Positions 12,566 through 49,386 of a stretch of 64,000 nucleotides of DNA are shown here, piece by piece. Origin of the DNA: an uncultured Pseudomonadota bacterium (GTDB lineage: Bacteria; JAMCPX01); assembly GCA_964547905.1 (NCBI GenBank), contig CAZJPN010000050.1:11049-75048 (forward strand). Reading direction: 5' to 3'. Position 1 is the stretch's first letter. Every line of letters starts with the position of its first letter. Below the pieces are notes generated by a model. The model was not told the DNA's origin, did not search any database, and saw only the letters and a program-made list of their open reading frames with translations. Both the position numbers and the translations under genes were made by a program.

Positions 12566-12590
12566 TTCCAAATGCATTTTTGGGGTTAAT
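12566..12590. repeat. Post-stop palindromic element (family TTAACCCGAAAAATGCATTTTTCGGGTTAA), copy at the def 3' end
   Basis: ccaaaTGCATTTTTGGGGTTAAtcc. The TTA at 12586-88 is the def stop codon (minus strand). Confidence 0.7.
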
Positions 12591-13098
12591 CCTTGCTTGA
12601 TTTCGATTCTTTTTTAAGGGATTTTATATATGCGTTTCTTTTTAAAAGAGATGCATGTTCAATGAGCGTAATACCATTGAGGTGATCCATTTCATGCTGT
12701 ATGACAGTTGCAAGCAGATCCGTAGCCTCCAAAATCAGGTCCTTGCCATTCCTATCATAGCCTTTTATCACAACCCTCGCCGCCCTTTTTACCTCTATCC
12801 GAAAATCAGGTACACTCAGACATCCTTCTTCTAGAGAAGACTCCCCTTCCGATTCAACAATAACCGGGTTTATAACAGCGATGATCCGCCTTTTATCGTC
12901 CCCAATAGGTACATCCGCTACAAACAATGCTTTTTCTTTTCCTACCTGCGTAGCAGCAAGACCTATACCTGATGCAACATGCATTGTCTCATACATATTA
13001 TCTATAAATCCCTGCAGCTCGCCATTTATATCTTTTATTTCTTTAGCCTTACGCTTCAGTATCTTTTCCGGATATCTGTATATCTTGTAGATCGACAT
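12586..13098 (-). CDS. def: Peptide deformylase
   Basis: GIGLAATQVG, EGCLSVPD and HEMDHLNG motifs. Confidence 0.92.
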   Translation of the reverse strand: MSIYKIYRYPEKILKRKAKEIKDINGELQGFIDNMYETMHVASGIGLAATQVGKEKALFVADVPIGDDKRRIIAVINPVIVESEGESSLEEGCLSVPDFRIEVKRAARVVIKGYDRNGKDLILEATDLLATVIQHEMDHLNGITLIEHASLLKRNAYIKSLKKESKSSKD

Positions 13099-14504
13099 TA
13101 TCCAACCTTTTCGAGTAGTTCCAATTGCTTTTTTGACTCCCTGTGATTCGGATTGTGCACAAGTGCCTTGAGAAAATATCCTCTTGCAGTCTTATAATCC
13201 TGTTTGTTTTTGTATATAATGCCCAGATAGTAATAATTACGTGCCTCGGTCGGATTAAGTTCTACAGCCTTTGAGAATGACCGCTCGGCAGCTTCGACGT
13301 TAACAGGATGATTGCTAAAACTCATGGTTTCCAGGATAGCCAATCCCGTATGGTACTCGGAGATGTTTGGATCATTGCTTATAGCCGTATTGAACATTTT
13401 ATAAGCCTCGGTATATTTCTTCTCGTTTACGTAAACCCTTCCTCTTTCAAAACTCTGTCTTGCAAGTACAGGGTCGGTCTCCGTAAATAATATACTTTTA
13501 TCCTGCTCACTTATCTCTTTTGTATATTTTTCTCTTGTCGAATCTTTATAAAGGATTGTAAATGCTTCGAGTATCTGATTGTACATCTGCAATGCAAGCG
13601 GTTTTATATCTTTATCATCCGTCTCTGCAAATCTATCAGGATGATAATTTTTTGATAATAGTGTAAAAGATGAGAGAATCTGCTCTTTTGTGGCACTCAT
13701 ATCAAGTCCGAGCTTTTCAAAAAGATTCATTGTTTGGAATTTCTCAAGTTTATCCTCTATCTCCGACTTCAGTGAGGCATTTGTGGTTGTTTCTTTCTTT
13801 TCCTCGCCTGGATAAATAAAACCGAGTAGGTTTAAGACACCTATGATCTGTATTGCTTTTAACTCACCCATGCCTGCATTCGCTATAACATCACTCAGGG
13901 TTTTGGTACCATCTATAAGATTATAGAACTTCTCTCCATTCGTATTCTTTATAATATTCAGGCCCTCGGATATAGCTGTATTTTTCCGCATAATGACATT
14001 CGAATGTCCGATGATCTCTTTCAGTTTGTCAGGACTGAATTTTCTCTTTACACCTTCTATCATGAGATCCCATAAGCTCAGATCAAGGGTTATGACCTCA
14101 TTGCTGAAGTGCACATCTTCTATGAAGTTATATTCTGCATCATCGAGTTCAAATATCGAATAAATGATTTCCGAAACCTGTTTTATGACAAGATCGAAAA
14201 GTTGTTCAGGGGTTATGATATTCATGTCTACAAGTACAGTTCCGAGTCTGTTACCCGTTTTCATTACCTCTTTCAGTGCAATATCAAGCTGCTCCTCTGT
14301 TGCTATGTTTAATTTTAATACCATTGCGCCCATTCTGTCAGAAGGCAGGTTGGAAGCCGAAAAAATAGGCTTACCATTTGACAGGTACACTATCTTAACC
14401 TCAGGGCCGTTTGTCAGCCTGAGTATGCCTTTAACCCTAGCTGTATGTAAACTCATAAGAAGTTTCAGAAACGGAGTATTTTTTAATCTACCTTTATTAA
14501 GCAT
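13098..14504 (-). CDS. DUF4388 domain / J-domain (DnaJ) / TPR-repeat protein
   Basis: N-terminal DUF4388-like segment (…LLMSLHTARVKGILRLTNG…IVYLSNGKPIFSAS…). Central J domain with an HPD motif (…LSKNYHPDRFAE…). C-terminal TPR-like repeats (…AYKMFNTAISNDPN…). Confidence 0.6.
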   Translation of the reverse strand: MLNKGRLKNTPFLKLLMSLHTARVKGILRLTNGPEVKIVYLSNGKPIFSASNLPSDRMGAMVLKLNIATEEQLDIALKEVMKTGNRLGTVLVDMNIITPEQLFDLVIKQVSEIIYSIFELDDAEYNFIEDVHFSNEVITLDLSLWDLMIEGVKRKFSPDKLKEIIGHSNVIMRKNTAISEGLNIIKNTNGEKFYNLIDGTKTLSDVIANAGMGELKAIQIIGVLNLLGFIYPGEEKKETTTNASLKSEIEDKLEKFQTMNLFEKLGLDMSATKEQILSSFTLLSKNYHPDRFAETDDKDIKPLALQMYNQILEAFTILYKDSTREKYTKEISEQDKSILFTETDPVLARQSFERGRVYVNEKKYTEAYKMFNTAISNDPNISEYHTGLAILETMSFSNHPVNVEAAERSFSKAVELNPTEARNYYYLGIIYKNKQDYKTARGYFLKALVHNPNHRESKKQLELLEKVG

Positions 14505-14534
14505 TTGTTTTTTATTTAAGCACAGTTATCAAAT

Positions 14535-14996
14535 CTATTCAACTGTAATTCTTTTCAATTTCTTGATAGTCTTCTGTTTCTTTTTGCCGGTGAGTATTTC
14601 TTTTATGCTCCATAGTACCTGCATCCTCGGGTCTGTTGAATCTTCTTTTCCTAATTTTGTCAGCTCCTCGTCTACCATGTTGTTTATCATATATATTATT
14701 TCCCCGGCATCTGCCGGCATTTCACCTATTCGTAAAGGATCTATGATCCTCTTTATTACGACATTTAAAATTAATTGCATAGTTGTAAGGAGTGATGATA
14801 ATGCCTTTGCGGTAGGCATATTCTCGTAACCTTCGATTATTTGTTTTACGAACTCTATAACATCGTCCAGCGCAAGTATGTCTTCTCTATTTGCAGTCAA
14901 AAAATGTTGTTTCGCAGAACGAAGCGACTGCAGCGCGGCGGGATTCAATTTACCTTTTGTACCCTTGTTTTTCATATAAAAACAATCTTTAACCAA
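14535..14996 (-). CDS. Hypothetical protein (153 aa), translationally overlapped with the upstream ArsA-family ATPase gene
   Basis: No recognisable motifs. Lys-rich C-terminus. 25-nt overlap with the arsA-like gene suggests co-expression. Confidence 0.4.
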   Translation of the reverse strand: MVKDCFYMKNKGTKGKLNPAALQSLRSAKQHFLTANREDILALDDVIEFVKQIIEGYENMPTAKALSSLLTTMQLILNVVIKRIIDPLRIGEMPADAGEIIYMINNMVDEELTKLGKEDSTDPRMQVLWSIKEILTGKKKQKTIKKLKRITVE

Positions 14997-16132
14997 TCGC
15001 CCTCTATAGTTGCCTCTTTTATCTGTCTCGTTTGAAGAGCCCTCGGCAGCATGAGATTACGCTGAAAATTTTTTATTTTAATTATAAGTTCGTCTCCGCT
15101 TGTAATAAGTCCTATATCCTCTTTTTTAACACCCGGCATCTTTATCATAAGCAGAAAATGATCCCCTTTCTTGCTTATCTTGATAGGGGCATCTTTATTA
15201 AAACATGTCGTAGGATCGTCTTCTTTGAACAAACCTTGTGCAAATTTTAACAGCGACGCTATTCCAACCATCTCTCTGTCATAAAGGATTGATTTGAAAA
15301 TAGGAGTTCCATGAAACACCCGGGCTATATGCTTGATATGTTTATCCTGTATACCAAGCCAGTTGGACAGGTAAGAGTTATTGATTTCCTGCGGATAGAC
15401 CTTGTTTACCACAAGGGCATCAACCGTAAATCCGAACATGTTCAGGTACGTGTACGCACGCTGAGATTCATTTATAACCATCTTCTCAGGATTTATGACG
15501 AGCCTTATTGTCGTAATATTACTGTCCAAGAGCAATCCTTTGATTTTTATCATTTTGAGATACAGCTTCTCAATAGAACCGTAAACTTCATCTTTTGGAA
15601 AAGGGATCCGTGTTATCCTTTCGGCAGCAGGCCTTACAATCTTTGCTATTTTTCTGCCTATATTGAAAAACTTATCCATGTACCATTGAAATATTTCAGG
15701 AAAGCTCAGCAGTCTTATGGTACTGGCTGTCGGTGCACAGTCTATGATTATAGTGTCATAATTGCCATCCTGTTTAAACTCAAGCAGCTTGAGGAGGCTG
15801 AATAATTCTTCCATGCCCGGGAGTGTTGCAAGCTCGTCGGACATAAGTTCGTCAAGCCCCTGACTCTGAAGCAGGGTCTTTACGTAAGATTCTATTTTGC
15901 CCCAGTTATCCGCTATCTCTTTATAGATGTCTATTTCCTGACCATACAGGTTTTCCTTTAATTTCTGAGGGGTATTGCCTATCTGGATCGAAAACGCATC
16001 GGAAAGACTATGAGCAGCGTCCGTACTCAGAACAATTGTTTTATGTCCGAGTTCAGATGCAAGCACAGCAGTAGCGGCAGATACTGTGGTCTTGCCAACC
16101 CCGCCTTTTCCTGTGTAGAGTATTACCCGCAT
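14972..16132 (-). CDS. ArsA/Get3-family P-loop ATPase with a C-terminal HSP20-like (alpha-crystallin-type) domain
   Basis: Deviant Walker A KGGVGKTT at the N-terminus. ArsA-family A-loop region. ~80-aa C-terminal beta-rich extension (…HFLLMIKMPGVKKEDIGLITSGDELIIKIKNFQRNLMLP…) resembling the ArsA HSP20-like domain. Confidence 0.7.
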   Translation of the reverse strand: MRVILYTGKGGVGKTTVSAATAVLASELGHKTIVLSTDAAHSLSDAFSIQIGNTPQKLKENLYGQEIDIYKEIADNWGKIESYVKTLLQSQGLDELMSDELATLPGMEELFSLLKLLEFKQDGNYDTIIIDCAPTASTIRLLSFPEIFQWYMDKFFNIGRKIAKIVRPAAERITRIPFPKDEVYGSIEKLYLKMIKIKGLLLDSNITTIRLVINPEKMVINESQRAYTYLNMFGFTVDALVVNKVYPQEINNSYLSNWLGIQDKHIKHIARVFHGTPIFKSILYDREMVGIASLLKFAQGLFKEDDPTTCFNKDAPIKISKKGDHFLLMIKMPGVKKEDIGLITSGDELIIKIKNFQRNLMLPRALQTRQIKEATIEGDWLKIVFI

Positions 16133-16176
16133 ATCATTATTTTAAGTTTTTTTTTATAGGACGGTCAATCATATTC

Positions 16177-16264
16177 TTAACCCAAAAAATGCAATAGGGA
16201 GGTTTGTTCCTTCGCTCCGTGTACCTACCCGAAGAGAATGAGGGTAGGGGGAATTTTCGGGTTA
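16177..16264. repeat. Split copy of the post-stop palindromic element with a 57-nt insertion
   Basis: TTAACCCAAAAAATGCAA-[tagggaggtttgttccttcgctccgtgtaCCTACCCgaagagaatgagGGTAGGgggaa]-TTTTCGGGTTAA. The insert carries its own CCTACCC/GGGTAGG stem. It lies between the cobA/hemD stop and the arsA-like start. Confidence 0.65.
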
Positions 16265-16270
16265 AAAAGC

Positions 16271-17779
16271 TCATCGTTCATTTTTATAATTTATTATAAT
16301 TTCTTGAATTAACGCTTCTATAGTATAAGACGAAGGCTGAATTTTGACTTCAAGCCCCATATCATGAGCAGTCTTTGCAGTTATAGGTCCTATGCAGGCT
16401 ATATCGGCATGTTCGAGTATATGAAATGCATTCTCCCCGAACATATCAAAAAAATTGGTTACCGTTGACGAACTGGTAAAAACAGCGATATCCACGCCCT
16501 CTTTTAGATAAGGCAGTATATCCTGTCTTATTTCTGCCCTGATTGTTTTATAAACAGCGACAACATTCACCTTGGCTCCCATTTTTTTAAGTTCATCCAC
16601 AAGGATCATCCTTGCTTCCTTAGCCCTCGGTATAAGAATTTTTTTACCGTGCACCTCACCGTTTAGCAAGGTAATAAGTCCTTCTGCCCTGAATTCTTCC
16701 GGCACATGATTTACCCTTATTTTTAGATCTTCTATTGCCTGTGCAGTCTTAGGACCGATTGCCACTATCTCTGCATTCCCAATTTCCCTTATATCTTTTC
16801 CGGATCTCCACAACCTGTCTACAAACCTACCGACTGCATTTGCACTCGTAAATATTATTATATCATAAGTATCAAGCTCTGTTATGGCATTATCAAGAGG
16901 CATAGAATCATCAGGAGTTGCAATCTGTATGGTTGGCTGCTCTATAACAAATGCACCGAGCCATTCGAGAGACTGCCTCAAGATTGAGCTGTCCGTCTCC
17001 ATCCTTGTGATTAGCACCTTCTTGCCAAACAAAGGGAGATTCTCAAACCAGTTCAGTTTATCACGCAGCGTAACAACTTTACCAATAATGATAAGCGCCG
17101 GCGTAATGAAAGGCTTATGGCTTTCCTCAAGTATATCTTTTAATGTACATACAGAGGTCGACTGCATGGGCATTGTGCCCCATCGGATAACAGCTACGGA
17201 ATCATGTATGTCTCTTCCTTTGCTTACAAGCTTCTGTGTTATTTGTTTTATCTGCGCAACACCCATCAACACTACAATCGTGTCAATTTTAGCAATGGCA
17301 TCCCAGTTGTGTTCATCGATACCGGCTGCCGTATGTTTATGACCGGTTATTATCACCACAGAAGACGACAGATCGCGGTGGGTAAGCGGGATACCGGCAT
17401 AGAGAGGAACTGCATTTATCGATGATACACCGGGAATAATCTCAAACTCGATCCCCTCTTCCGCAAGCGCAACGGCTTCTTCCCCTCCTCTTCCAAAGAG
17501 GAATGGGTCTCCGCCTTTAAGTCTCAACACATTATGACCGGCCATTGCTTTATCTATAAGTATTCTGTTGATCTCATCCTGAGACTTTATATGTTCCCCT
17601 GCCATTTTCCCAGCGTATATAAGCTCGGTTGAAGGACCTGCATATCTGAGCACCTCTTTGTTGATGAGATGATCGTACACTATCACATCCGCAGTCTTTA
17701 TGTGATTTATAACCTTCAGAGTGAGAAGTTCTGCATCCCCTGGACCTGCACCGGCTATGTATACTTTACCTCTCTTCAT
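16271..17779 (-). CDS. cobA-hemD: Bifunctional uroporphyrinogen-III C-methyltransferase / uroporphyrinogen-III synthase
   Basis: N-terminal SUMT domain (VYIAGAGPGDAELLTLK…) fused to a HemD-like C-terminal half. 502 aa. Confidence 0.85.
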   Translation of the reverse strand: MKRGKVYIAGAGPGDAELLTLKVINHIKTADVIVYDHLINKEVLRYAGPSTELIYAGKMAGEHIKSQDEINRILIDKAMAGHNVLRLKGGDPFLFGRGGEEAVALAEEGIEFEIIPGVSSINAVPLYAGIPLTHRDLSSSVVIITGHKHTAAGIDEHNWDAIAKIDTIVVLMGVAQIKQITQKLVSKGRDIHDSVAVIRWGTMPMQSTSVCTLKDILEESHKPFITPALIIIGKVVTLRDKLNWFENLPLFGKKVLITRMETDSSILRQSLEWLGAFVIEQPTIQIATPDDSMPLDNAITELDTYDIIIFTSANAVGRFVDRLWRSGKDIREIGNAEIVAIGPKTAQAIEDLKIRVNHVPEEFRAEGLITLLNGEVHGKKILIPRAKEARMILVDELKKMGAKVNVVAVYKTIRAEIRQDILPYLKEGVDIAVFTSSSTVTNFFDMFGENAFHILEHADIACIGPITAKTAHDMGLEVKIQPSSYTIEALIQEIIINYKNER

Positions 17780-17781
17780 AT

Positions 17782-19937: not shown

Positions 19938-19940
19938 AAC

Positions 19941-20744: not shown

Positions 20745-20808
20745 TTTAATTCATCAACCTGAAAACCGCATTTATTATTTTCCGATGTTCATACCTCAAG
20801 CTTCACGA

Positions 20809-22232: not shown

Positions 22233-25126
22233 TCATACCTGCTTCTTTGATTTTATGATACTTTGATACAGCTCTTTTGTTTTATCCGACGGTTCTATGT
22301 CAAGCGTTTGAGATAAGATCGCTACACAGCGCTTATACGTAGCAACAGCCTCGGCATAGCGGCCCAGAGATTTATAGATTATCATCAGACACTGGTAAAA
22401 AAGCTCTACGTGGTTATCCGCTTCTAAACTTTTTTGATATGTTAAGATTGCATTGCGCATCTCTCCGGCACCATCATAATACATGCCCAATTGTTCAATA
22501 AAACGTGTAAACCTGTCGTGCAACTTTTCTCTAAAACTTATAGCCCATGATGGGAGTGCATCCTGTGTAAAAAAATCTCCTCTATATGTGTCAAAGATGC
22601 GCCTTTCCATGGCTTTAATCTCTTTCTGCTTTTTTGATAAGTCCTTACCGGTTAACAGTGACTCCATTTTGTCTAAAAGATGCTCAAATGCCCGCACATC
22701 CACCCAGCATTTTTTTGTATTCAGCATAAGCCTGCCTGCCTGTGAAATCACGGCATCATTGGAACCGAGCAGTTTCCTTAACCTATGGATGGTCGTTTCC
22801 AATGTCTGGTGGGCATAATCACCCTGGGCCTCTGGCCACAAAGCGCTGCTTATTTGATCAAGCCCGACTGCTCTTTCATAATTAATGATCATGAATTGCA
22901 GCAACTCGATGGGCTTAAGCTGTGCTTTCCTGGATAATGCAATCTGCGTATCTTCCTTAAAAATCTTAAAATTGCCGAGGGTATAAAACCTAAACGCCTA
23001 TGGCCAATCTTCGCATCCCAGGGGAGGCGTGTCAGGCATAAGGTTGCGCCTCTCTATAAGACTTCTGACATACTCTTTTTTGATTCCATGCTCAAGTGCC
23101 TTGACACAGAGCCGTGCCATGACAGACGGACGCCAGCCCGGAAAGTTTACATATCCCATATCCTGCCCGAGCTGCATTGCCCTGCGGAGAAATCTCAAAC
23201 CCGATCGTTCTTTGTTTTGATCAAACGCAAACAAGGCTTTTACGACAAGATACATATATCTGAAATGCCTCTGTTTGCTGACGATTCGAGACGTTTTGTT
23301 GAGATAGTACAATGCCATGGTATCGTCCGAAAGTTCATGCAGACCTGAGCCATTTGTACAGAGCTCATTACCATCAGATTTACGTCGCCTGATTCGATAG
23401 CCGGGGTCATGCCCATGTTCTGGATGTTGTATGCAGAAGCAAAATCCTCTCTCATCATTGCCTCCTCGGTTAATTTCATATAATAGGTGGCACGATCATA
23501 AACTCCTGTCTGATCTATGGTTTTAGAAATCTTTTGTAAAAACTGTCTTCCAAGCGGGATATTCCCGGTGCTCATCATCCATGCGGCACCAAACGATATG
23601 AGCATATGATCCATGACGTGTATCTCCGTGGTTTCGGCTAACTGTATCCCATCATTTAATGCCTTGAATTCAGGGTCAGAAGCTACGGTATAATAGTTGT
23701 AGAGGACTTCTATGATTTTAAATACAAGGAACGTCATAGGAGATATCCGGTTTGAATACTCCAGGTCTTTCAACGGTGGCAGGACCGTTTCCTCCATTCG
23801 GATATCACCTATTGTTGAGAAGTGAAGGGCTATATTGGTACTTAACTGTACTCTCATATCGGGGTTATTCGTGTTTTGTAAAATAAGCACAGCTCATTTC
23901 AGCCATTTTTTAATCCTGGGATTGTATTGCTGTCTGAAATTCAGGGCGTAAAACATCTTGATTACCGCTATTTCTTCTGTTTTTGTGGCAGGAAAGCCCT
24001 TCCATTTTTTCACAAGCTTTTCCATAATATTGATCCATGGATCGTGAAGCCTTAACTTTCCAAACCCATACGTGATGGAATCGGAAACCCCGGTCCATGC
24101 TATAAATATTCCGTTCCTGTCTTTATTCTTTGTGAACAGCTTGAATGACTTCTTAAAAAGAACATAGCTCTCTTCGGGATTGAATGGCAGTCTGCATGCG
24201 CCGAGCCAGTATTGTAACCATGGATTACCCTCTATGATATCATCCGGTAAAGCCTTAAGCCATGCCTCCAACGTACGGTTTCTACCTTGTGAAATAAGAT
24301 CAAATGCGTTTTTAAGTATTAACCTTACAGCTTCGGACCAGTCCTTGGATTGCAAAAAAAGCGTGACCGCATCCTCAACATATCCCGATTCTTCCAATAC
24401 CTTTGCGGCATTTTGTTGAATTCCCGTGAGCTTTTCGTAATTCCACCTGCTCCGCGTCTTCGATAGCAGGAATTCCCTGAACAGGTCATGGTACTTGTAG
24501 GTATTGTCCTGATGCTTGATGGTAAAATAATGAGAGCCGATAAGGTGAGCGAGATCTTATCGGATGATTGTTTCCCCGCCATCCGATTCGCCATCTTCAC
24601 GGTCATGGACGGAAAAAAAGGACGCTCGCAGGAGGAAATCCTGTGCCGACGGATCCGTTTTATCGAAAATCTCGGCTGAAAAATAATCAAAGATCGATTG
24701 ATAGTCCTTCAGACCGCCCTTTCCGACGGCCTCTACCCCCATCTTGTGCTGTTCAAGCATAAGCACGAGTCCGGCAGCCCAGCCGTCTGTCCAATTGTGC
24801 AGCTTCTCTACCGTCTCCCGGTTGTGACCATTGCCGGAACGCAGTTTGATCAGTGCTCCCGTTTCATCGGGCGTAAACTTGATCTCCTCATTGCTGACGA
24901 CAGCCAGCACGCTGTCTTCCCTCAGACGCGAGAATATGCCGGGAGGTTCCGTCCGGCTGATCACCATGACATTGCCGCTCGCGGGAATCCTCATCAAAGC
25001 CTCATTCAGAACATTATGGAACGCGGAGTTACCGTTGATCTCATGATAATTATCAAACATGAGGACAAAACCTTCGGGCAGCATGCCGTAAAGGCTCTCA
25101 AAAAATCTATGCGTATATGTGCCGAT
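22233..25126 (-). pseudogene. Decayed large regulator: MalT-like STAND NTPase plus helical repeats fused to a C-terminal SARP-type wHTH-BTAD; 5'-truncated, three in-frame nonsense codons and one frameshift
   Basis: Reverse-strand reading gives a MalT-like Walker B (FVLMFDNYHEI), TDGWAAGLVLM…, SHYFTIKHQDNTYKYHDLFREFLL and WLQYWLGACRL. The same frame then runs into FRFYTLGNFKIF…LKPIELLQFMIINYERAVGLDQISSALWPEA (OmpR/SARP wHTH) and a BTAD helical domain. In-frame stops: TAA at 24557-59, TGA at 23894-96 and TAG at ~22995-97. There is a frame change within 23240-23318. No P-loop can fit before the upstream stop at ~25127. Confidence 0.6.
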
Positions 25127-25184: not shown

Positions 25185-25211
25185 TCAAAAGAAATGCATT
25201 TTTTCGGGTTA
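25185..25211. repeat. Post-stop palindromic element, copy at the ABC permease 3' end
   Basis: gaaaTGCATTTTTTCGGGTTAAtg. The TTA at 25209-11 is the permease stop codon. Confidence 0.7.
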
Positions 25212-26033
25212 ATGTATCAGGGTTGGATACAGGCGTCTTGCTGTCAGGAGAAAAACGATAAAAACGAACACCATGACAACGAGATCAAAACCAAAGCTGT
25301 GAACGCTCTGCCCGCCTTTAATCATGAGGCTACGAAGAGCATCTACAAGATACGTCAATGGATTAAATCTCGCAAACCACCGCAGCCATGGAGGCATGAG
25401 TTCGAGCGGATAGATCGCATTACTCGCAAAGAAAAGCGGCATCGTCAGAATCTGCCCTATTCCCATAAAGCGCTCGCGGGTTTTTACTATGCAGGCAATT
25501 ATCAGCGAAAAGGTAGAAAAAATAGCAGATCCCAGAACAACGCTCAATAAAACACCGCCTATTGCCCATGGCTCCCAACGCAGCGAAATACCCATGGCAA
25601 GCGCTATAAAATAAATAATTACCACTTGCACCAATCCCCTGAATCCTGATGAAACCGCTTTTCCCAGGACAAGTGAAATACGATGTGCAGGGCTTACCAT
25701 AAGCTTGTGGATAATTCCGAGGTCCCTTTCCCAAATAACGGCAATACCATAGAATATGGCGCTGAACAACACGCTTTGGGCAAGGATGCCGGGGGTCATG
25801 AAGGCAATATAACTTACCTGACCTGTCGGTATGCCCCGGACCCGGCTGAATACCTGCCCGAATATCACAAGCCACAACACAGGCTGGACCGCACGCGTAA
25901 AGAGCTCGGTAGGATCACGAACAAGCTTCTTTATTTCAACCTCGGAGATGGCCAGGCTTTCTCTGAAAAACTCAACAAGGAAAAAAGAACTAAGCCAGGC
26001 GGTTTGCCGTTCTGCGTGTTTTTCTGACATCAC
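25209..26033 (-). CDS. ABC-2 type transporter permease
   Basis: Six TM helices. ABC-2 family pattern. Overlaps the upstream ATPase gene. Confidence 0.8.
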   Translation of the reverse strand: MMSEKHAERQTAWLSSFFLVEFFRESLAISEVEIKKLVRDPTELFTRAVQPVLWLVIFGQVFSRVRGIPTGQVSYIAFMTPGILAQSVLFSAIFYGIAVIWERDLGIIHKLMVSPAHRISLVLGKAVSSGFRGLVQVVIIYFIALAMGISLRWEPWAIGGVLLSVVLGSAIFSTFSLIIACIVKTRERFMGIGQILTMPLFFASNAIYPLELMPPWLRWFARFNPLTYLVDALRSLMIKGGQSVHSFGFDLVVMVFVFIVFLLTARRLYPTLIH

Positions 26034-39695: not shown

Positions 39696-40703
39696 ATGCG
39701 GAACAAAAAGGCCGATACAAAAATTATCAAGAATATAAGAAAGATAGCCATAACAGGAGTAAACAGCTTTATAGGCTGCAATCTTACCAGGCAACTCTCC
39801 CACAATCCGAAGTACAAAATCATAGCAATAGATATAAGAAAACCGGACTTTCTCGGGAAAAATATCAAATTTTATAAGATCGATCTTACAGAACCAATGA
39901 TTGACGCCGTAATTGCAGGGATCTTCAAAAAAGAGGGTATTGACGAAGTTATACATCTTGCATTTTTATCCGGACCGATAAAGAATACCTCCCTTTCACA
40001 CGAGCTTGAAGTAATAGGCACGCTAAACATACTCCATGCGTCATCAGCGGTAAAATTAAAGAAATTCATAATAAGATCGACAACCATGGCATACGGTGCA
40101 AACGCAACAAACCCAAACTTTCTTACAGAAGAACATCCTTTAATGGCAGACCCAAAGATGGAGTACCTAAAAGATAAGGTAGAAGTAGAATATCTTGTTA
40201 AGAGGTTTAAAGAAAAAAATCCTCAAGCCACGGTCACTGCTTTAAGACTATGCGCAATAATGGGTCCGACAGTGAAAAACTTTTTAACTTCCTACTTTGC
40301 AAGTCCCGTAATACTTACAATACTCGGGTTTGATCCGCTGTTTCAATTTGTACACGAGGAGGATGTTATAGATATTTTCAGGGTAGTTGTCGAGGACGAT
40401 TATCCGGGTATATTCAATATAGTGGGAAGGGGTGTTCTTCCGTTCAGTACCATACTAAAACTATCCGGTAAGATCGGCATCCCAATCCCGTATAAGATAG
40501 CATACTCAATGGTAGGGGTATTGTGGTCAGCCAATTTATCTCCGGTACCACCAACTTTTCTCGACTTCCTTAAATACACATGGCTTGCAGATGGGGCTAA
40601 AGCAAAAAAGATAATGAAATTTGAAGCACGCTACAAAATAAAAGATACACTGAAAAGTCTTACGGGAACCTATCGTCTGAGGGAATTAAAGCTGGTGGGT
40701 TGA
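39696..40703 (+). CDS. NAD-dependent epimerase/dehydratase family protein (extended SDR)
   Basis: Rossmann motif ITGVNSFIGCNL. 335 aa. Confidence 0.75.
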   Translation: MRNKKADTKIIKNIRKIAITGVNSFIGCNLTRQLSHNPKYKIIAIDIRKPDFLGKNIKFYKIDLTEPMIDAVIAGIFKKEGIDEVIHLAFLSGPIKNTSLSHELEVIGTLNILHASSAVKLKKFIIRSTTMAYGANATNPNFLTEEHPLMADPKMEYLKDKVEVEYLVKRFKEKNPQATVTALRLCAIMGPTVKNFLTSYFASPVILTILGFDPLFQFVHEEDVIDIFRVVVEDDYPGIFNIVGRGVLPFSTILKLSGKIGIPIPYKIAYSMVGVLWSANLSPVPPTFLDFLKYTWLADGAKAKKIMKFEARYKIKDTLKSLTGTYRLRELKLVG

Positions 40704-41683
40704 AAATAATCATGGGGAAAAGCATGCACAAAAACAACATACCGTCTTTATCCTCAAAAACAAAACATTCTGTAAATACAAAGGGATCCCACGCTGGGTT
40801 TACCCTTGCTCCTGCCTTAACCGGAAAGGTAAAGGAATTCTTTTCTCAATTCTCCACAAAAAAGATCAAAGAGCAACTATCCGGTATAACTATGTGGGCA
40901 ACCTCTATGGAGATTGATGAATTCGGACTCGATCCGATATTTACGGCAAAAGCAAAGGTCTTCTTCGATCTGCTTTATGACAAATGGTGGAGGATAGAAG
41001 CTATCGACATGCATAACATACCTTCGTCAGGCAGGGCATTGCTCGTTTCCAATCATTCAGGGGGAATCCCGATAGACGGAGCCATGATCGTAACATCCAT
41101 TGTCAAAAAACATCCTGTTAAACGGATCGCAAGACCACTCGTGGAAGACTTTGCATATTACATGCCGTTCGTGAATTCGTTTCTTATAAAAACAGGAAGT
41201 GTAAGGGCATCCCAGGAAAATGCGGAAAGATTACTCGAAAAGGAACAACTTGTCATAGTCTTCCCGGAAGGCATAAAAGGCATAGGTAAGCCTTTTAAGG
41301 ACAGGTATAAATTGCAGAGATTCGGAAGGGGTGGATACATAAAACTTGCAATAAAAACACATTCACCGATTATACCGGTAGCAGTTGTCGGTGCAGAAGA
41401 AGCCTATCCGATTATAGGAAGAATCGACTGGCTTGGTAAAATATTCGGCGTTCCGTACCTCCCGACAACACTATTTTTTCCATGGCTCGGACCTATTGGA
41501 GCAATACCACTTCCAACAAAGTGGTATATAAAATACGGCAAACCGATTGACATGGAAAAGTATAGTGAGCATGACATCGATGACGATATTCTTATAAACA
41601 GATTATCCGAAAATGTAAGAACACGTATACAACAAATGTTAACAGAAATGCTCAAGCAAAGAAAATCCATATTCTTCGGCTAA
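40700..41683 (+). CDS. Lysophospholipid (1-acyl-sn-glycerol-3-phosphate-type) acyltransferase
   Basis: Acyltransferase HxxxxD motif (…LVSNHSGGIPIDGAMI…) and FPEG block (…VIVFPEGIKGIG…). Confidence 0.8.
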   Translation: MKIIMGKSMHKNNIPSLSSKTKHSVNTKGSHAGFTLAPALTGKVKEFFSQFSTKKIKEQLSGITMWATSMEIDEFGLDPIFTAKAKVFFDLLYDKWWRIEAIDMHNIPSSGRALLVSNHSGGIPIDGAMIVTSIVKKHPVKRIARPLVEDFAYYMPFVNSFLIKTGSVRASQENAERLLEKEQLVIVFPEGIKGIGKPFKDRYKLQRFGRGGYIKLAIKTHSPIIPVAVVGAEEAYPIIGRIDWLGKIFGVPYLPTTLFFPWLGPIGAIPLPTKWYIKYGKPIDMEKYSEHDIDDDILINRLSENVRTRIQQMLTEMLKQRKSIFFG

Positions 41684-41712
41684 CTCGCAAAAATTGCATT
41701 TTTCGGTTCAAA
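41680..41712. repeat. Post-stop palindromic element, copy at the acyltransferase 3' end
   Basis: cTAACTCGCAAAAATTGCATTTTTCGGTTcaaac. The TAA at 41681-83 is the acyltransferase stop. Confidence 0.7.
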
Positions 41713-41754
41713 CACTTGACTATAAAAATAATTTCTACATAATGAAGTCTTCAT

Positions 41755-41827
<73 letters not shown>

Positions 41828-41958
41828 TTTTGCTTTTCAATAGATTAGTCGATCCTCTCTACGTCTCAATTCACTCCTGCTACCGTTTTTGCTATAATAT
41901 TGTTGAAACTCTGTTAACCCAAAAACCTTATCTCTTTAAAATTTGTAGCCTCGCCTCA

Positions 41959-43761: not shown

Positions 43762-43786
43762 AAACCTGTCCCTTTTCCCTTTAAAA

Positions 43787-43802
43787 TACCAAGATTAATC
43801 TT
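43787..43802. promoter_or_regulatory. Perfect 16-bp palindrome CCAAGATTAATCTTGG in the divergent ACAD/ctpA spacer
   Basis: CCAAGATT|AATCTTGG, ~26 nt upstream of the ACAD ATG (minus strand). Confidence 0.4.
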
Positions 43803-43979
43803 GGCTACTTAATGAAGTCGGCTATCTTTTAAACTACCTTAAAGTTGTTGGTTAAGCTTGTCAAGTTTTTAATGGCTGAGGCAGATGTTTTTCCTTTCTT
43901 GAATTTCATCGAATAAATATAATAATCAGGACGCACTCAATCTCTTGTCTTTTCAAAGAAAAGGCTTTATGATATAAAA

Positions 43980-45335: not shown

Positions 45336-45652
45336 TGAAGTGGTTTTATAGATTTCTATTGCTTCTCATAATAGCAATGGCCGTATACGCCGTCGCCTCG
45401 CATGGTGGAGTATACGATCTATGGCAAATTAAGAAGAATATAGCACAGGTGGAGGCAAGGAATACGTTGTTGACGCAGGAGAAAGATAACCTTGCAGAAC
45501 AAATAAACTTATTACAATCGAACAATTTTTATATAGAAAAGATAGCACGTGAGGAGCTTGGTATGGCAAGAAAAGATGATATAGTAGTCTATCTGAGAAA
45601 AGATAACAACCACACTCCTCAGTTCCCTGCAGTAAATCATAACGAAAAATAA
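45335..45652 (+). CDS. ftsB: Cell division protein FtsB/DivIC (septum formation initiator family)
   Basis: N-terminal TM helix plus a coiled coil (…EARNTLLTQEKDNLAEQINLLQSN…IEKIAREELGM…). 105 aa. Confidence 0.7.
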   Translation: MKWFYRFLLLLIIAMAVYAVASHGGVYDLWQIKKNIAQVEARNTLLTQEKDNLAEQINLLQSNNFYIEKIAREELGMARKDDIVVYLRKDNNHTPQFPAVNHNEK

Positions 45653-45670
45653 AAACTATATTTTCATATT

Positions 45671-47767
45671 ATGGCTGACCGAAAGAAGAAACATATTTTT
45701 ATTATATCTCTATTCTCAATTATGCTCGCAGCTACTTCCGCTTGCTATGTATTGGGTATAGGATCAGGCAATGATTACGACAATATTTTTTTTATAGCCT
45801 TTATTGCCCTTTTTTTTATTTTTTCAATTATTTCTTATATAGTAACTAAAATCCCACAGAACATAAAAAATATTATGCTTTCGCTGCTTATCGTCGCTGC
45901 CTTCATAATAATGCTTGATTATATTGAAGTTACGTTTCTGTTTAACGCTTATTCTTCCATCTATTTGATATTCAGTCTTATAACACTGTTGTTCGGTATT
46001 GCCGATGGGGTTATCACTGTTTTATACGGTGCCGCATTGTTCTTAACAAAGTCTTACATTTATTCAATACCTTATGATCGCTATATATATTATTCTCTCG
46101 TTTCCATGGTCTCTGTTATAACCATAGGGTTGTTGGTAGCCTACGAAAGGAAGATATTAGAGAGATTGAAAAATAAAATTTCCACACTTCAGGAGGCACC
46201 CATAGAGTTCAGTTTAAAGCCGGGCGGTAAGAGTGATTATGTTCAATATTCCGAAATCATTTCCGATGATGGACTTAAAAAGGAAAAAAACAGACTTATG
46301 GTTATGCTCAACGAAAGGTTATTCAATATCGTAGAAACGATCCGCTCCGCGATACATCCCTTCACGGTGATACTCTACCTCGTAGACAATGACATGAAAT
46401 TAAGAGGCAGAGAAATACTATCAAACAGTGAATGGATAGATATGGATAAACCGCTTTCAGCGGACGATTCCTATATCGGCTGGATACTGAAGAATAAAAA
46501 AAACATGCTCCTCAATGAGATAAAAGACGAAATCAAAGGCATACCATACTACTCCAGAAATGAAGGTATTAAGTCATTCATGGCTGTACCTGCTTTACGT
46601 GAAAATGATATAATAGGTATTATATGTGTAGACAGCCTTGAAGTTCAGGCATTTACGGATGAACATACAAAAATATTAACCGTAATAGCGAATCAGATCA
46701 TAGATCTGCTTGACAACATAGAATTGCAGTACAGATTACGATACGATATGTATGAGAAAAGCGCTATGTATACCTTTGTAAGAACTCTTTCTCATTATAT
46801 AGATGTGGCAGATATAGCGAAAGCATCTCTCAGTGAGATCATAAGGATCACGAATGCCAATGCGGGTATTTTCGCAACGAAGAATGAACACAAAAATTTT
46901 GATATAGTTTTCACCCATAATATCGATAAAAATATTGTCGGTAAAGATTTATTTATTGACACCGAACCAACACACGACGGTATACTGGAAAGTCAGTTGT
47001 CGGTAACTTCACAGGTTGCAACATCTCAGATAAAACTCCTTTATCCAGCATTGTACAACCTTTATGTACCCGATAAAACTCTAAAATATACAGCCATAAT
47101 ATCCCTGCGTGGAAAGATGGAAGAAGTAGGCTTGATAGTTTTATTCATGGGAAACACCATCAATGAAAGGATAAGTATAATTCTCGACACACTTATAAAT
47201 CAGGTTTCCATATCCCTTTATAACTCTATCCTATTCAATAAACTTGGTAAATTGGCAATAACAGACGGACTCACGGATCTCCATAATCACAGACATTTTC
47301 AGGAGTATTTAGAGGCCGAGATAAAAGAGGCAATCAGGTATGATAAACCCTTGACCCTGCTCATGATAGATATAGATCATTTTAAAATATTAAACGATAC
47401 ATACGGACATCCGCAGGGAGACAGAGTTTTGAAGAAATTATCGGATATCATCATGCAAACCATAAGGGATGTCGATTATGCAGCAAGATATGGGGGTGAA
47501 GAATTCTGCATAGTACTCCCCAATACCGATAAGAAGGGGGCGTACAAGACAGCAGAACGGTTAAGAAAGGCGATCGAGTCTTTAATAATAAAAACAGAGG
47601 CCGGAGACAACATCAGATTTACCATAAGTATAGGTATATCCTCCATACCCGAAGATGCAAAGAATAAAAGTGAGCTTATACTCCACGCAGATAGGTCACT
47701 CTACCTAGCCAAAGAAAATGGTAGGAACAGAACGACAATTTATGATACTATGAAATTAAAGGAGTAA
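45671..47767 (+). CDS. Membrane-anchored GAF-domain diguanylate cyclase (GGDEF)
   Basis: Polytopic N-terminal membrane domain, two GAF-like regions, C-terminal GGDEF with RYGGEEF active-site motif. Confidence 0.85.
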   Translation: MADRKKKHIFIISLFSIMLAATSACYVLGIGSGNDYDNIFFIAFIALFFIFSIISYIVTKIPQNIKNIMLSLLIVAAFIIMLDYIEVTFLFNAYSSIYLIFSLITLLFGIADGVITVLYGAALFLTKSYIYSIPYDRYIYYSLVSMVSVITIGLLVAYERKILERLKNKISTLQEAPIEFSLKPGGKSDYVQYSEIISDDGLKKEKNRLMVMLNERLFNIVETIRSAIHPFTVILYLVDNDMKLRGREILSNSEWIDMDKPLSADDSYIGWILKNKKNMLLNEIKDEIKGIPYYSRNEGIKSFMAVPALRENDIIGIICVDSLEVQAFTDEHTKILTVIANQIIDLLDNIELQYRLRYDMYEKSAMYTFVRTLSHYIDVADIAKASLSEIIRITNANAGIFATKNEHKNFDIVFTHNIDKNIVGKDLFIDTEPTHDGILESQLSVTSQVATSQIKLLYPALYNLYVPDKTLKYTAIISLRGKMEEVGLIVLFMGNTINERISIILDTLINQVSISLYNSILFNKLGKLAITDGLTDLHNHRHFQEYLEAEIKEAIRYDKPLTLLMIDIDHFKILNDTYGHPQGDRVLKKLSDIIMQTIRDVDYAARYGGEEFCIVLPNTDKKGAYKTAERLRKAIESLIIKTEAGDNIRFTISIGISSIPEDAKNKSELILHADRSLYLAKENGRNRTTIYDTMKLKE

Positions 47768-47770
47768 TCA

Positions 47771-48496
47771 ATGATGAAAAAACTTGGCGTTAATATCGAT
47801 CATATAGCAACGATTAGACAGGCAAGAAAGACAAACGAGCCTGATCCTGTAAATTCAATCAGTATCATAGAGCTTGCGGGCGCTGACAGCATTGTTATGC
47901 ATCTCAGAGAGGACAGAAGGCATACACAGGATAGAGATCTTGAACTTGCACGAAAGATTGTCAAAACAAAACTAAATCTGGAAATGGCACCGACACAGGA
48001 GATGATAAAGATAGCACTTGATATAAAACCTGATACCGTCACACTTGTCCCTGAACGCAGAGAGGAACTCACAACCGAAGGAGGACTTGAAGTGGCCCTG
48101 AATATGGAATCGTTTAAGAAATACATAAGATTGTTTCATGATGCGGATATTGTTGTCAGTCTTTTCATAGATCCAGACCTTGACCAGATAAAAGCAGCCC
48201 ACAGGGTAGGCGCTGATGTGGTGGAGATAAGCACAGCAAGGTACAGCGAATCAAAAATAAAGAAAGAGCTCGAAACAAATATACAACAAATAATCAATGC
48301 GGTTATAACAGCAGAGAAATTAAAGCTCGGGATAGCAGCAGGACATGGTCTTACCTACATCAACATAGAACCGATAACCAGAATAGATGCAATAACAGAG
48401 TATAATATAGGTCATTCTATCATAGCGAGAGCTTTATTTATAGGCATTACTCATGCTGTAAAAGAAATGAAAGATAAGATAAATTCGAGATTATAG
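47771..48496 (+). CDS. pdxJ: Pyridoxine 5'-phosphate synthase
   Basis: MMKKLGVNIDHIATIRQAR N-terminus. 241 aa TIM-barrel PdxJ. Confidence 0.9.
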   Translation: MMKKLGVNIDHIATIRQARKTNEPDPVNSISIIELAGADSIVMHLREDRRHTQDRDLELARKIVKTKLNLEMAPTQEMIKIALDIKPDTVTLVPERREELTTEGGLEVALNMESFKKYIRLFHDADIVVSLFIDPDLDQIKAAHRVGADVVEISTARYSESKIKKELETNIQQIINAVITAEKLKLGIAAGHGLTYINIEPITRIDAITEYNIGHSIIARALFIGITHAVKEMKDKINSRL

Positions 48497-48529
48497 ACAC
48501 TAAAACTTACTAAAAGGAGATAATAAGTT

Positions 48530-49357
48530 ATGGCCATAATAACCATATCAAGAGGAACATTCAGCGGCGGAGAAAAACTGGCGGAATGCCTTGCCAAAAA
48601 ATTAGAGTATAAATCAATAAGTAGGGAGATCCTTGTACAAGCCGCTGAAAAATATGGTATTTCAGAGAACAAATTAATAACAGCCATGGAAGCAAAACCT
48701 GCTATGAGAGAACGACTGTCATTAAATATAGACAGGTTCCGCTACCTTTCTTTTATACAGGCCACCCTATGTGAAGCGGCAAAAAATGATAACATTGTTT
48801 ATTACGGGCACGCAGGTCATCTTCTTTTAAAAGACGCATGCCCCATCATAAAGGTCAAGGTTATAGCAAGTATGGAACAGCGAATCCTCTTTGCCATGGA
48901 GCGTAACAAAATTTCCCGGGAAGCGGCGATTCCTTATATCAAAAAAATGGACAAATACAGGAAACAATGGACAAAGTTTCTTTATGATATTGACTGGAAT
49001 GATCCTTCGCTGTACGATATTATCATAAATTTGAAGGACACGAGCATACAAACAGCTTGTTATATGATAGCTGTTATGACAACAGCCCCGGAATTCAAAC
49101 TCACAGAGGTTTCAAAAAAGGCTTTAGCAGATCTCACACTTGAGAGCCAGGTAAAGGCAAGGCTTGCAGCCGATGATACTACGAAAGATTATATGCTGAA
49201 AATTGCGGTAAAAGACGGCAATGTAAGAGTCAGCGGCAGGGTTAAAAATGTCGAGGATGCCAATAGAATAAAAACCATTATCGAAGAAATGCCCGGTGTC
49301 AAGAGTATGGACTGCAGTTGCGTAAACTATTACATAAATGATGATGTAATACTTTAA
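48530..49357 (+). CDS. Cytidylate kinase-like family protein fused to a C-terminal BON domain
   Basis: N-terminal ITISRGTFSGGEKLAECLAKKLEYKSISREIL… (cytidylate-kinase-like family). C-terminal …GNVRVSGRVKNVEDANRIKTIIEEMPGVKSMD… (BON). Confidence 0.55.
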   Translation: MAIITISRGTFSGGEKLAECLAKKLEYKSISREILVQAAEKYGISENKLITAMEAKPAMRERLSLNIDRFRYLSFIQATLCEAAKNDNIVYYGHAGHLLLKDACPIIKVKVIASMEQRILFAMERNKISREAAIPYIKKMDKYRKQWTKFLYDIDWNDPSLYDIIINLKDTSIQTACYMIAVMTTAPEFKLTEVSKKALADLTLESQVKARLAADDTTKDYMLKIAVKDGNVRVSGRVKNVEDANRIKTIIEEMPGVKSMDCSCVNYYINDDVIL

Positions 49358-49386
49358 CTCCGAAAATGCATTTTTCGGGTGAATCG
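49355..49386. repeat. Post-stop palindromic element, near-full copy between the convergent BON-protein and MFS genes
   Basis: TAACTCCGAAAATGCATTTTTCGGGTGAAtcg. The TAA at 49355-57 is the plus-strand gene's stop. Confidence 0.75.

Follow-up and report, generated by a model that had tools for sequence, protein, structure and literature searches.

A stretch of bacterial DNA of 64,000 nt, analysed here as a whole (the window), carries a short word that returns at the ends of genes, and we asked what kind of sequence this word represents. A sequence-only reading had described it as a perfect palindrome of ~30 nt, TTAACCCGAAAAATGCATTTTTCGGGTTAA, recurring at six or more loci. The sequences quoted in that reading were all found in place and the repeated word is real, with the shared tip TTAACCCRAAAAATGCA occurring in six credible copies (S1, S2, S3, S4, S5 and S8), but the idealised 30-mer has no match in the window, even at 3 mismatches; as the headline object it is a mental consensus. 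Palindromes are present at only two window sites, 49354-49383 and 41680-41712, only one arm is found at 12566-12590 and at 25185-25211, and at 16177-16264 two arms are separated by 60 nt. The frequency of the 13-mer, which that reading had proposed to compare with expectation, exceeds that of shuffled sequences: allowing up to 2 mismatches, 7 matches were observed in the window versus 2.4 expected, and none of 100 shuffles got to 7. For the 15-mer AACCCGAAAAATGCA with up to 2 edits, 7 matches were observed versus 0.67 expected (maximum of 4 in 200 shuffles), six of the seven falling in the non-coding 6.6% of the window. The copies amount to about 1 per 10 kb (6 in 64 kb), are found on only 6 of 55 genes, and all are either intergenic or overlap genes at the stop codon only.

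Most of the window copies are one-ended fragments, and different copies cover different parts of a longer element. S1 (12475-12589, plus strand) is a 115-nt right-end fragment with the order GTGGATCGCACGAC, hairpin CACCCAAG/CTTGGGTG and then ...ACAAAC...CATTTTTGGGG, which aligns with the right 105 nt of full-length copies in genomes L084 and L128. Its terminal TTAA (12586-12589) is the TAA stop of def (minus strand, stop 12586-12588) and a second TTAA is located at 12475-12478; the version in the 97% relative L135 is 43 nt shorter, L123 has a 28-nt tip only, and no copy was found at this site in L124, L161 and L162. S2 (16177-16265, minus strand), bordered by the cobA-hemD stop on one side and by the -35 box of the ArsA promoter (called at 16168-16139) on the other, is an 81-nt internally deleted element that consists of 12 nt of the left tip and the final ~70 nt of the right end, has TTAA at 16177-16180 and 16262-16265, and folds with its termini paired (-27.6 kcal/mol, z -2.8). 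S3 (25195-25212, minus strand) is a tip-only remnant, TTAACCCGAAAAAATGCA, that is kept in L135 and contains the stop of the ABC-2 permease gene as its TAA (25209-25211). With at most 10-12 nt derived from the element it is ambiguous and may be partly native sequence, because the TTAACC and CATTT flanks are native in L161/L162, where an unrelated 38 nt lie between them.

S4 (41680-41712, plus strand) is a degenerate tip-to-tip palindrome, CTAA-CTCGCAAAAATTGCATTTTTCGG-TTCAAA, with a weak fold (-2.4 kcal/mol) that occupies the entire 31-nt spacer from the acyltransferase stop to the tRNA-Phe promoter; a variant is present in L003, and L159 (83%) and L160 (80%) have unrelated spacers of ~80 nt ahead of the same promoter. 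The best palindrome is S5 (49354-49383, no strand assigned), TTAA-CTCCGAAAATGCATTTTTCGGG-TGAA, in the spacer of the convergent cytidylate-kinase/BON and MFS genes, its left TAA being the BON-gene stop (49355-49357). Relative to the consensus it lacks one A and carries substitutions; it is retained in L003 with 2 substitutions, the same spacer in L126 (92%) contains a one-ended long-form copy of 56 nt, and no copy was found in this spacer in L127 (84%) and L006 (79%). The UDG-ACPS spacer holds S8 (59284-59325, minus strand; nhmmer E = 5.5e-9), an end module of 42 nt, TTAACTCCAAAATTGCATTTAAAAACAAGAAAGTTTGTGGAG, that had been overlooked before and is kept in L003. Two proposed half copies were not significant in the profile search. 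At 41913-41926, GTTAACCCAAAAAC (no strand assigned) matches the S2 tip exactly over 12 nt, and the corresponding position in L003, the 97% relative, reads AATCCCAAAAAC without TTAA, leaving it doubtful as a solo tip; TAACCCAAAACCGG at 62027-62040 (no strand assigned), at the mutL stop, is probably a chance match.

Comparison with other metagenome genomes places the tip in context: it is evidently the terminal inverted repeat of an element that is 47-330 nt long and non-coding, and what had been taken for a 30-nt unit is really two 13-nt tips of this element, fused at their common TGCA. Intact copies with TTAA on both sides and inverted ends were found in L084 (2947-3184, 238 nt), L128 (330 nt and 47 nt) and L131. 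Read from each end, the sequence is CCCRAAAAATGCA(TTTNNAAA)ATAGGGAAGTTTGT, and the ends are true inverted repeats of ~35 nt. Similarity reaches 45-105 nt past the palindrome (nhmmer E 1e-9 to 1e-23), coding capacity is absent, and AGGTATTCTTCGAATAT, the block that varies least in the full element, is internal; together with GAGGACTTAAA..TCGTTTATA.CAAA and GTGGATCGCACGAC it is common to genomes of 36-55% GC. Pairing of the subterminal hairpin is kept via different sequences (ACCCATGC/GCATGGGT, CACCCAAG/CTTGGGTG and CCTACCC/GGGTAGG). Among the 115 matches to the 18-base core in the genome collection, the perfect 30-mer is present in two other genomes, L020 and L084, and near-perfect in L029 and L099; by our own calculation the chance of an extension by TTAAC/GTTAA is ~1e-6 per match. 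In L033 the 22-mer lies between TCAA and TCAA, a direct repeat, where an extended palindrome would give TTGA.

The presence or absence of copies in orthologous spacers, a comparison that the sequence-only reading had suggested, gave a filled and an empty state at S2. The spacer from cobA-hemD to ArsA measures 138 nt in the window and 137 nt in L135, versus 52 nt in L123, 43 nt in L124 and 52 nt in L161/L162, and the difference is exactly the TTAA-to-TTAA segment, the flanks aligning around a single uninterrupted (T)TAA. The site is filled in L135 and L136, and empty in L123 (CTTAAAATATG), L124 (CCTAAGAATATG) and L161/L162 (TTTGTAAGAATATG). By these alignments S2 is a clean insertion, although a TTAA duplication is here indistinguishable from a TA or TAA duplication, or from an HUH-type event of the form 'insert 3' of TTAA, end in TTAA'. 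S2 is the only site with this textbook comparison, the S1, S4 and S5 spacers not being alignable between relatives. Presence is graded and lineage-specific, with 6 copies per 64 kb here, 2-3 per 21 kb in the 97% relative and 0-1 per 20 kb in more distant relatives.

The association with stop codons is partial. It had been claimed that the terminal TTAA supplies the stop in each case; this holds for def, the ABC-2 permease, the BON gene and, reading CTAA instead of TTAA, the acyltransferase (stop 41681-41683), but not for cobA-hemD, which ends with a TGA 6 nt upstream of the copy, or for the ACAD gene, whose stop lies 33 nt from the 41913 tip. Three of the nine T/TAA stops in the window are occupied. 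As 9 of the 64 free TTAA sites overlap a stop, finding 3 or more of 6 copies there has a binomial p of ~0.04 (our own calculation), only a modest excess over other free TTAA sites. Def has 170 aa whether the element is present or not, the BON protein has 275 aa in all relatives and the acyltransferase C-terminus, FFG followed by the stop, is conserved. Since protein lengths and C-termini thus equal those of relatives without the element, the window stops were not made by it; they are pre-existing T/TAA codons on which it sits.

We consider it fairly probable (about 0.68) that a non-autonomous, MITE-like mobile DNA element targeting TTAA left these sites as copies of itself, most of them truncated or collapsed. 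A miniature mobile element with TTAA preference had been among the alternatives listed earlier, and it is backed by filled and empty insertion sites, TTAA flanks, inverted ends and a repeat family that lacks coding capacity and is dispersed over several genomes. Moved by a transposase, the element would integrate at TTAA or (T)TAA, either duplicating TTAA or needing it on both sides. Insertions would survive selection mainly where TTAA is harmless, at T/TAA stops and in other gene-end spacers, because coding sequence takes up 93% of the window and promoters lie in upstream spacers; a T/TAA stop would be such a harmless site, which would explain why the tip so often begins exactly at the stop. 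The 22-bp palindromes CCCGAAAAATGCATTTTTCGGG would be two 13-nt tips joined at their common TGCA: being identical to its reverse complement, (A)TGCA(T) forms a direct repeat within the inverted ends, and slippage or deletion between the TGCA copies would remove the interior, leaving exactly the palindrome. A candidate enzyme is an IS1380/piggyBac-like DDE transposase, which would fit CCC...GGG ends beside a 4-bp TTAA; TA duplication by an IS630-like enzyme, with ends ACCC...GGGT, would fit equally. Neither the window nor the neighbourhood of any copy yielded an autonomous element or a transposase with these ends. Counting against a MITE, the internal block AGGTATTCTTCGAATAT and the kept hairpin represent more constraint than a decaying MITE needs.

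Mobilisation as single-stranded DNA by an HUH enzyme (REP/REPIN-like with RAYT, or of the palindrome-associated IS200/IS605 type), with TTAA as cleavage or target tetranucleotide at the hairpin foot instead of a target-site duplication, appears unlikely. The filled and empty S2 sites match it as well, the short forms resemble REPs in being palindromes (22-30 nt) at the 3' ends of genes, a fixed tetranucleotide adjoins the stem, and the subterminal hairpin is kept by compensatory changes. However, IS200/IS605 ends are not inverted repeats, whereas those of the element are, over ~35 nt; the stems are AT-rich and weak, and no Y1/RAYT gene was found in the window or beside any copy. The tag TTAA also differs from GTAG and CGTC, by which most REPs are sorted (PMC3733652).

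Little probability attaches to the reading that the 240-330-nt unit, transcribed and functional, is a small structured RNA gene or cis-RNA, mobile or duplicated, with the window copies as fragments of it. The blocks conserved across genomes of 36-55% GC, the compensatory variation in one hairpin and the folding of S2 and the 47-nt copy, better than shuffles (z -2.8 and -3.0), are in line with an RNA, but shuffles fold as well as S1 and the L084 right end (z -0.55 and +0.44), Rfam gave no match even at E up to 1-10, and most window copies lack most of the unit. Moreover, both orientations relative to the adjacent genes are seen among the copies, and the independent full copies, ~5, are too few for covariation.

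A gene-end signal selected by the host is very improbable, whether it would terminate transcription, stabilise mRNA 3' ends, bind a nucleoid or termination factor, or serve as a DNA-uptake word. Copies do lie at gene 3' ends, mostly on the strand of the upstream gene, L020 and L084 keep perfect palindromes, and a small GGGTGAATCGCCC hairpin with a T-tract overlaps the right edge of S5. Yet relatives of 80-95% identity lack the copies at the orthologous gene ends, the copies themselves are decayed and come in many lengths, all but 6 of 55 genes are without one, and in L131 copies also occur in a divergent-promoter spacer and upstream of bamD. The remark that this is not a textbook intrinsic terminator proved apt, as the hairpins fold at only -2.4 and -8.6 kcal/mol, have no U-tract and no terminator was called at any site. 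Uptake sequences are far more densely spaced and are found in coding DNA too; at ~1 copy per 10 kb, never inside genes, decayed, variable and absent from close relatives, neither the uptake-signal nor the factor-binding alternative found support. Chance or convergent similarity of AT-rich gene-end hairpins, which would fit the unrelated hairpins in unrelated taxa among most of the 115 collection matches and a 17-mer tip found 12 times by chance in viral contigs, is refuted for S1, S2, S5 and S8 by 7 matches against 0.67 from shuffles, by similarity running 45-105 nt past the palindrome and by viral matches that never extend into the module, and is possible only for 41913, 62027 and, in part, 25195.

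As a putative MITE, the element resembles Correia (Neisseria), RUP (pneumococcus) and ERIC/IRU elements, which are non-coding and ~50-350 nt long, have terminal inverted repeats and a short AT-rich flanking duplication, are dispersed between genes and often at gene ends, vary in presence between close relatives and in size by internal deletion, and can carry nested repeats. It shares no sequence similarity with them and differs in the tip that is often the stop codon, the 22-bp tip-to-tip form and a parent IS that is not known; its flank is TTAA, that of Correia and RUP TA. In Tourist/PIF-Harbinger MITEs and the IS5 family (IS1031 group) a three-base TAA/TTA is duplicated, which would fit the S2 junctions, but a T almost always precedes the TAA, in favour of a four-base site, and the ends are unlike the IS5 type. 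In the prokaryotic IS1380 family, related to piggyBac, the ends start with CC and the duplication is 4-5 bp. Like these and piggyBac elements with their MITEs, whose integration is specific to TTAA (PMC7351741), the element has TTAA at both flanks and 5'-CCC...GGG-3' ends, a likeness of 3+4 bases, with no such transposase found in the window or beside copies; piggyBac proper is eukaryotic, and the host here is bacterial. REP/REPIN sequences with RAYT are likewise short palindromes outside genes, have a fixed tetranucleotide at their foot and follow stop codons singly or as inverted pairs; here the tag is TTAA instead of GTAG/CGTC, the stems are AT-rich, the palindrome appears to be the collapsed ends of a longer inverted-repeat element, and no RAYT gene was found in the window or beside copies. 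The word 'TTAA' occurs nowhere in a 2024 review of prokaryotic MITEs (PMC10969869). With no match found in the literature, the element is apparently undescribed, and otherwise it would be ordinary selfish DNA.

The sequence-only reading had described a ~30-nt perfect palindrome that recurs after stop codons at six or more loci. All sequences quoted in it were found where it had placed them, and the idealised 30-nt palindrome TTAACCCGAAAAATGCATTTTTCGGGTTAA had no match in the window, even with three mismatches allowed. The word as such is clearly over-represented: TGCATTTTTCGGG gave seven matches with up to two mismatches versus 2.4 expected, and AACCCGAAAAATGCA gave seven with up to two edits versus 0.67 expected, none of 200 dinucleotide shuffles having more than 4. 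Six of the seven AACCCGAAAAATGCA matches lie within the 6.6% of the window that is non-coding. Only the sites at 49354-49383 and 41680-41712 are palindromic, the latter in degenerate form, and a scan of the window for perfect hairpins picked up none of the element sites.

Alignment of the window sites with copies from relatives resulted in a common module of ~45 nt, TTAACCCRAAAAATGCA(TTTNNAAA)ATAGGGAAGTTTGTGTAA. An nhmmer profile built on this module and run against the window scored the sites at 12589 (E 5e-14), 59325 (E 5e-9), 16177 (E 1e-4) and 49380 (E 3e-3), followed by those at 25212 (E about 0.1) and 41708 (E about 0.7). The site at 59325 belongs to an additional copy (59284-59325, minus strand) absent from the original list, and the proposed half copies at 41913 and 62027 fell below significance in this search.

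Intact elements were obtained by scanning metagenomes with a long-form pattern, which gave only seven loci, two of these by chance, and by scanning a genome collection. An element of 238 nt (locus L084, 2947-3184), two copies of ~330 nt with an unrelated palindromic repeat nested inside (loci L128 and L131) and one of 47 nt (L128, 3428-3474) are each flanked by TTAA on both sides, and the ends of the L084 and L128 elements align as inverted repeats over ~35 nt, save for one 8-nt indel. In alignments with the full element, the window copy at def (12475-12589, plus strand) corresponds to its right-hand 105 nt, the copy after cobA-hemD (16177-16265, minus strand) to a 12-nt left tip fused to the right-hand 70 nt, and the copy at 59284-59325 to a single end module; the tips of the cobA-hemD copy, ~10 nt long, can be aligned to the family tip. 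Within the full element, conservation is highest in an internal block (AGGTATTCTTCGAATAT), and a hairpin ~45 nt from the right end is retained via differing sequences in three copies. A second, unrelated palindromic repeat family of ~75-85 nt, GTCATTGCGAG..GCGAAGCAATC..GATTGCTTCG..CTCGCAATGAC, occupies two intergenic spacers of the window (3550-3634 and 6414-6487) and is also nested within full-length TTAA elements of loci L128, L130, L131 and L133; a literature search for its word gave no match.

Orthologous spacers were compared for presence or absence of the element and for a TTAA duplication, as had been proposed, each relative being labelled by the percentage of identical amino acids in the marker protein through which it was retrieved. 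The spacer from cobA-hemD to ArsA measures 138 nt in the window and 137 nt in the 97% relative (L003/L135/L136), where the element is present as well, and is empty in L123 (95%, 52 nt), L124 (~92%, 43 nt) and L161/L162 (ArsA at least 90%, 52 nt); relatives at 79-84% are not comparable here. The additional DNA relative to the empty alleles is exactly the TTAA-to-TTAA segment, and the flanks of the empty alleles align around one uninterrupted (T)TAA (CTTAAAATATG, CCTAAGAATATG, TTTGTAAGAATATG). The filled site reads TTAA...TTAA, as do the elements of L084 and L128, versus a single TTAA, CTAA or GTAA in L123, L124 and L161, i.e. a target-site duplication with a single site in the empty alleles, the junctions fitting a length of 2, 3 or 4 bp. 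The element landed in the short gap that separates the stop codon of the preceding gene from the -35 box of the ArsA promoter, which is conserved.

The other sites vary among relatives, too. At def, the 115-nt fragment of the window is 43 nt shorter in the 97% relative, reduced to a 28-nt tip in L123 and missing from L124, L161/L162 and L125 (79-84%). Between the BON and MFS genes the window palindrome is matched by a palindrome with two substitutions in the 97% relative and by a one-ended 56-nt copy in L126 (~92%), and L127 and L006 (79-84%) carry none. Between the acyltransferase gene and tRNA-Phe the 31-nt palindrome of the window is a variant palindrome in the 97% relative, and L159 (83%) and L160 (80%) have unrelated spacers of ~80 nt, after which the conserved tRNA-Phe promoter is kept. 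The site at 25195-25212 (minus strand) is a weaker case: its flanks TTAACC and CATTT are native in L161, so at most 10-12 nt of this site are element-derived. Copies at other loci are found in L126, L127, L160 (truncated, 190 nt), L084, L128, L130 and L131, and copies are missing at orthologous sites in relatives. Copy density drops with distance from the window genome, from 6 per 64 kb in the window and 2-3 per 21 kb in the 97% relative to 0-1 per 20 kb in more distant relatives. Directly after tRNA-Phe, the 97% relative contains ~1.4 kb of extra DNA that is absent in the window (L003 1930-3340 versus window 41830-41958) and encodes three small ORFs, one with a weak YD-shell match, as if a small segment had been integrated or deleted at this tRNA gene.

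Searching the other element-bearing loci by tblastn with proteins of the window clade yielded no orthologues, so how broadly the family is distributed can be judged only from MAG labels, which are unreliable, and a wide taxonomic range should not be read from these labels (Deltaproteobacteria, Bacteroidetes, Ignavibacteriae, 'bacterium'). For L020, from a record titled Nitrospira japonica MAG, the G+C content of the contig is 34.7%, which seems too low for that organism, whose G+C is much higher, so the bin label is probably wrong.

The palindrome of the sequence-only reading is probably a collapsed form of the element. Scanning its 18-base core across 185,579 genomes gave 115 matches, mostly unrelated hairpins and none from the source genome. 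The exact 30-mer is present in L020 and L084, near-perfect copies occur in L029 and L099, and in L033 the 22-mer, i.e. the palindrome without its TTAA flanks, lies between TCAA and TCAA, a direct repeat, indicating that the flanks are duplicated sequence rather than a continuation of the palindrome. The 22-mer consists of two 13-nt tips overlapping at TGCA. Since (A)TGCA(T) is self-complementary it forms a direct repeat within the inverted ends, and loss of the DNA between its two copies would leave exactly the 22-mer. The core scan also returned six to seven copies each of a repeat of its own in two unrelated genomes, a Ruegeria MAG (L025, L036, L042, L044, L063, L108) and a Clostridia MAG (L021, L037, L065, L076, L086, L116). 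These repeats have a CCGAAAATGCATTTTCGG core in common, read CCCGATCCCGAAAATGCATTTTCGGGTTGCCTC in one genome and TTAATACCCCGAAAATTGCATTTTCGGGGG in the other, and appear to be independent palindromic repeat families.

We listed the 70 nt 3' of every stop codon in the window, with genes assigned by Pfam. The stop is the TAA of the word TAAC(C/T)C..AAAA..TGCA in def (12586-13098, minus strand), the ABC-2 permease gene (25209-26033, minus strand), the acyltransferase gene (40700-41683, plus strand) and the gene for a cytidylate-kinase-like/BON protein (48530-49357, plus strand). The claim that TTAA supplies the stop in each case holds for these four, in the acyltransferase gene as CTAA, and fails for cobA-hemD, which ends with a TGA 6 nt upstream of the word, and for the ACAD gene. 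The statement that TTAA can end ORFs in both orientations is borne out elsewhere, as in L020 the right TTAA terminates zapA, which is encoded on the opposite strand, and in L099 the left TTAA terminates a deoxynucleoside kinase gene. Def has 170 aa with or without the element, the BON protein has 275 aa in all relatives, and the acyltransferase ends with FFG-stop in all of them, indicating that in the window the element occupies stops that were already there and created none. In loci L127, L130 and L160, ORFs read into the element and end at an internal TAG or TGA, so the final few codons of a gene can also be substituted by the element.

The window contains 367 TTAA sites, 298 coding, 55 free intergenic and 9 overlapping a T-TAA stop, and three of these nine are occupied by the element. 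As stops make up 9 of the 64 harmless sites, the binomial probability that at least three of six copies fall on stops is ~0.04, a modest excess consistent with insertions into spacers that bear promoters being selected against in addition. The association with stop codons is probably a consequence of the TTAA target site and of purifying selection in a compact genome.

Other features of the window were noted. AT-rich arrays with a 7-nt period (AAGATTC/AAAATTA...) at ~340-411, 4735-4788 and 51045-51121, a third type of gene-end repeat, start directly past the stops of the minus-strand genes 412-1053, isocitrate/isopropylmalate dehydrogenase (4789-5853) and polA (51122-53821). A small stand-alone ORF of 131 aa with a GIY-YIG nuclease domain (1089-1484) shares 4 nt with the end of the beta-propeller/fn3 gene upstream of it. 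The acyltransferase ORF has an N-terminus ~70 aa shorter than its relatives (396-402 aa) and in this lineage overlaps the upstream epimerase gene by 4 nt. A MalT-like regulator (AAA_16/WHD_MalT/BTAD, 22233-25084) appears split into five consecutive ORFs versus 1093-1132 aa in L135 and L161, probably due to pseudogenisation or assembly frameshifts.

Together, these data define a real repeat family that is MITE-like, TTAA-targeting and apparently undescribed, in line with the earlier suggestion of a miniature mobile element with TTAA target preference. Like MITEs, the elements are small (22-330 nt) and non-coding, with no ORF or Pfam domain inside and ordinary housekeeping genes as flanking ORFs, and they share terminal inverted repeats (~35 nt in L084 and L128), dispersed copies (six in the window) and insertion polymorphism with empty orthologous sites. 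The TTAA duplication (4-5 bp) and CC(C)...GG(G) ends of piggyBac/IS1380 are matched, a likeness in sequence that we treat as resemblance only. If the ends are shifted by one base, duplication of TA or TAA accounts for the junctions equally well; the ends would then read ACCC...GGGT with TA duplicated (IS630-like), or TAA would be duplicated (IS5/Harbinger-like). No related autonomous IS with the ends of the element was found in ~1.5 Mb of sequence examined, and Pfam searches that included all unassigned window ORFs revealed no transposase, integrase or Y1 enzyme in the window or beside any copy. A search for paired ends 0.5-4 kb apart that enclose a transposase gave one 3-kb pair (L084) with two ORFs, one without Pfam match and the other DUF2249/DUF1858, and no transposase.

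The internal block and the retained subterminal hairpin leave some room for an HUH-type mechanism or an RNA role. IS200/IS605-derived palindrome-associated elements have a subterminal hairpin at both ends, of which the element has one, near its right end, and the clear ~35-nt inverted repeats, which that type lacks, rule against it. REP/REPIN sequences are G+C-rich palindromes of 20-40 nt tagged by GTAG/CGTC; here the tag is TTAA, the stem CCCGAAAAA/TTTTTCGGG is AT-rich (-2.4 to -8.6 kcal/mol), and no RAYT (Y1 transposase) gene is present among the window genes or adjoining copies. The palindrome had been considered not to be a textbook intrinsic terminator, and indeed its folds are weak (-8.6 and -2.4 kcal/mol), no T-tract follows it, and a terminator scan called none of the sites; a small GGGTGAATCGCCC hairpin with a T-run directly past 49383 is a better terminator candidate for the BON gene. 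An uptake-signal-like word, also suggested earlier, is contradicted by six copies per 64 kb with none in coding sequence, as DUS/USS occur about once per kb on both strands, coding sequence included. A sigma-70 or Bacteroidota-type promoter inside the module, considered by eye, was dropped because the spacing varies between copies.

Neither the window copies nor the elements of L084 and L128 matched a family of Rfam 15, at gathering or at permissive E-values, and BLAST against plasmids and phages gave no match. Scans of viral contigs returned nothing or chance 17-mers, which never extend into the module. The literature search found neither a TTAA-specific bacterial MITE nor any use of the sequence words of the element, and 'TTAA' does not occur in the text of a 2024 review of prokaryotic MITEs (PMC10969869).

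Going beyond the MITE-like assignment, the copies might be non-autonomous derivatives of a strictly TTAA-specific bacterial cut-and-paste transposon with CCC...GGG ends, a prokaryotic functional counterpart, or IS1380-side relative, of piggyBac. T-TAA stops would then be survivable landing sites, the internal block and the covarying subterminal hairpin would belong to an unusual mechanism of recognition or regulation, and the palindrome of 22 bp would perhaps still be mobilisable. We regard this scenario as unlikely, at about one chance in seven.

The MITE-like family explains why the same word starts exactly at several stop codons without invoking a new termination or uptake signal. Annotators of these uncultured lineages can mask it as a repeat (profile TTAA-CCCRAAAAATGCA...ATAGGGAAGTTTGT), and where a gene adjoins the element its end may be a few codons off, as is the case in loci L127, L130 and L160. 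Should the element prove to be driven by a transposase specific for TTAA, this would have some interest both for the evolution of transposons and as a tool.
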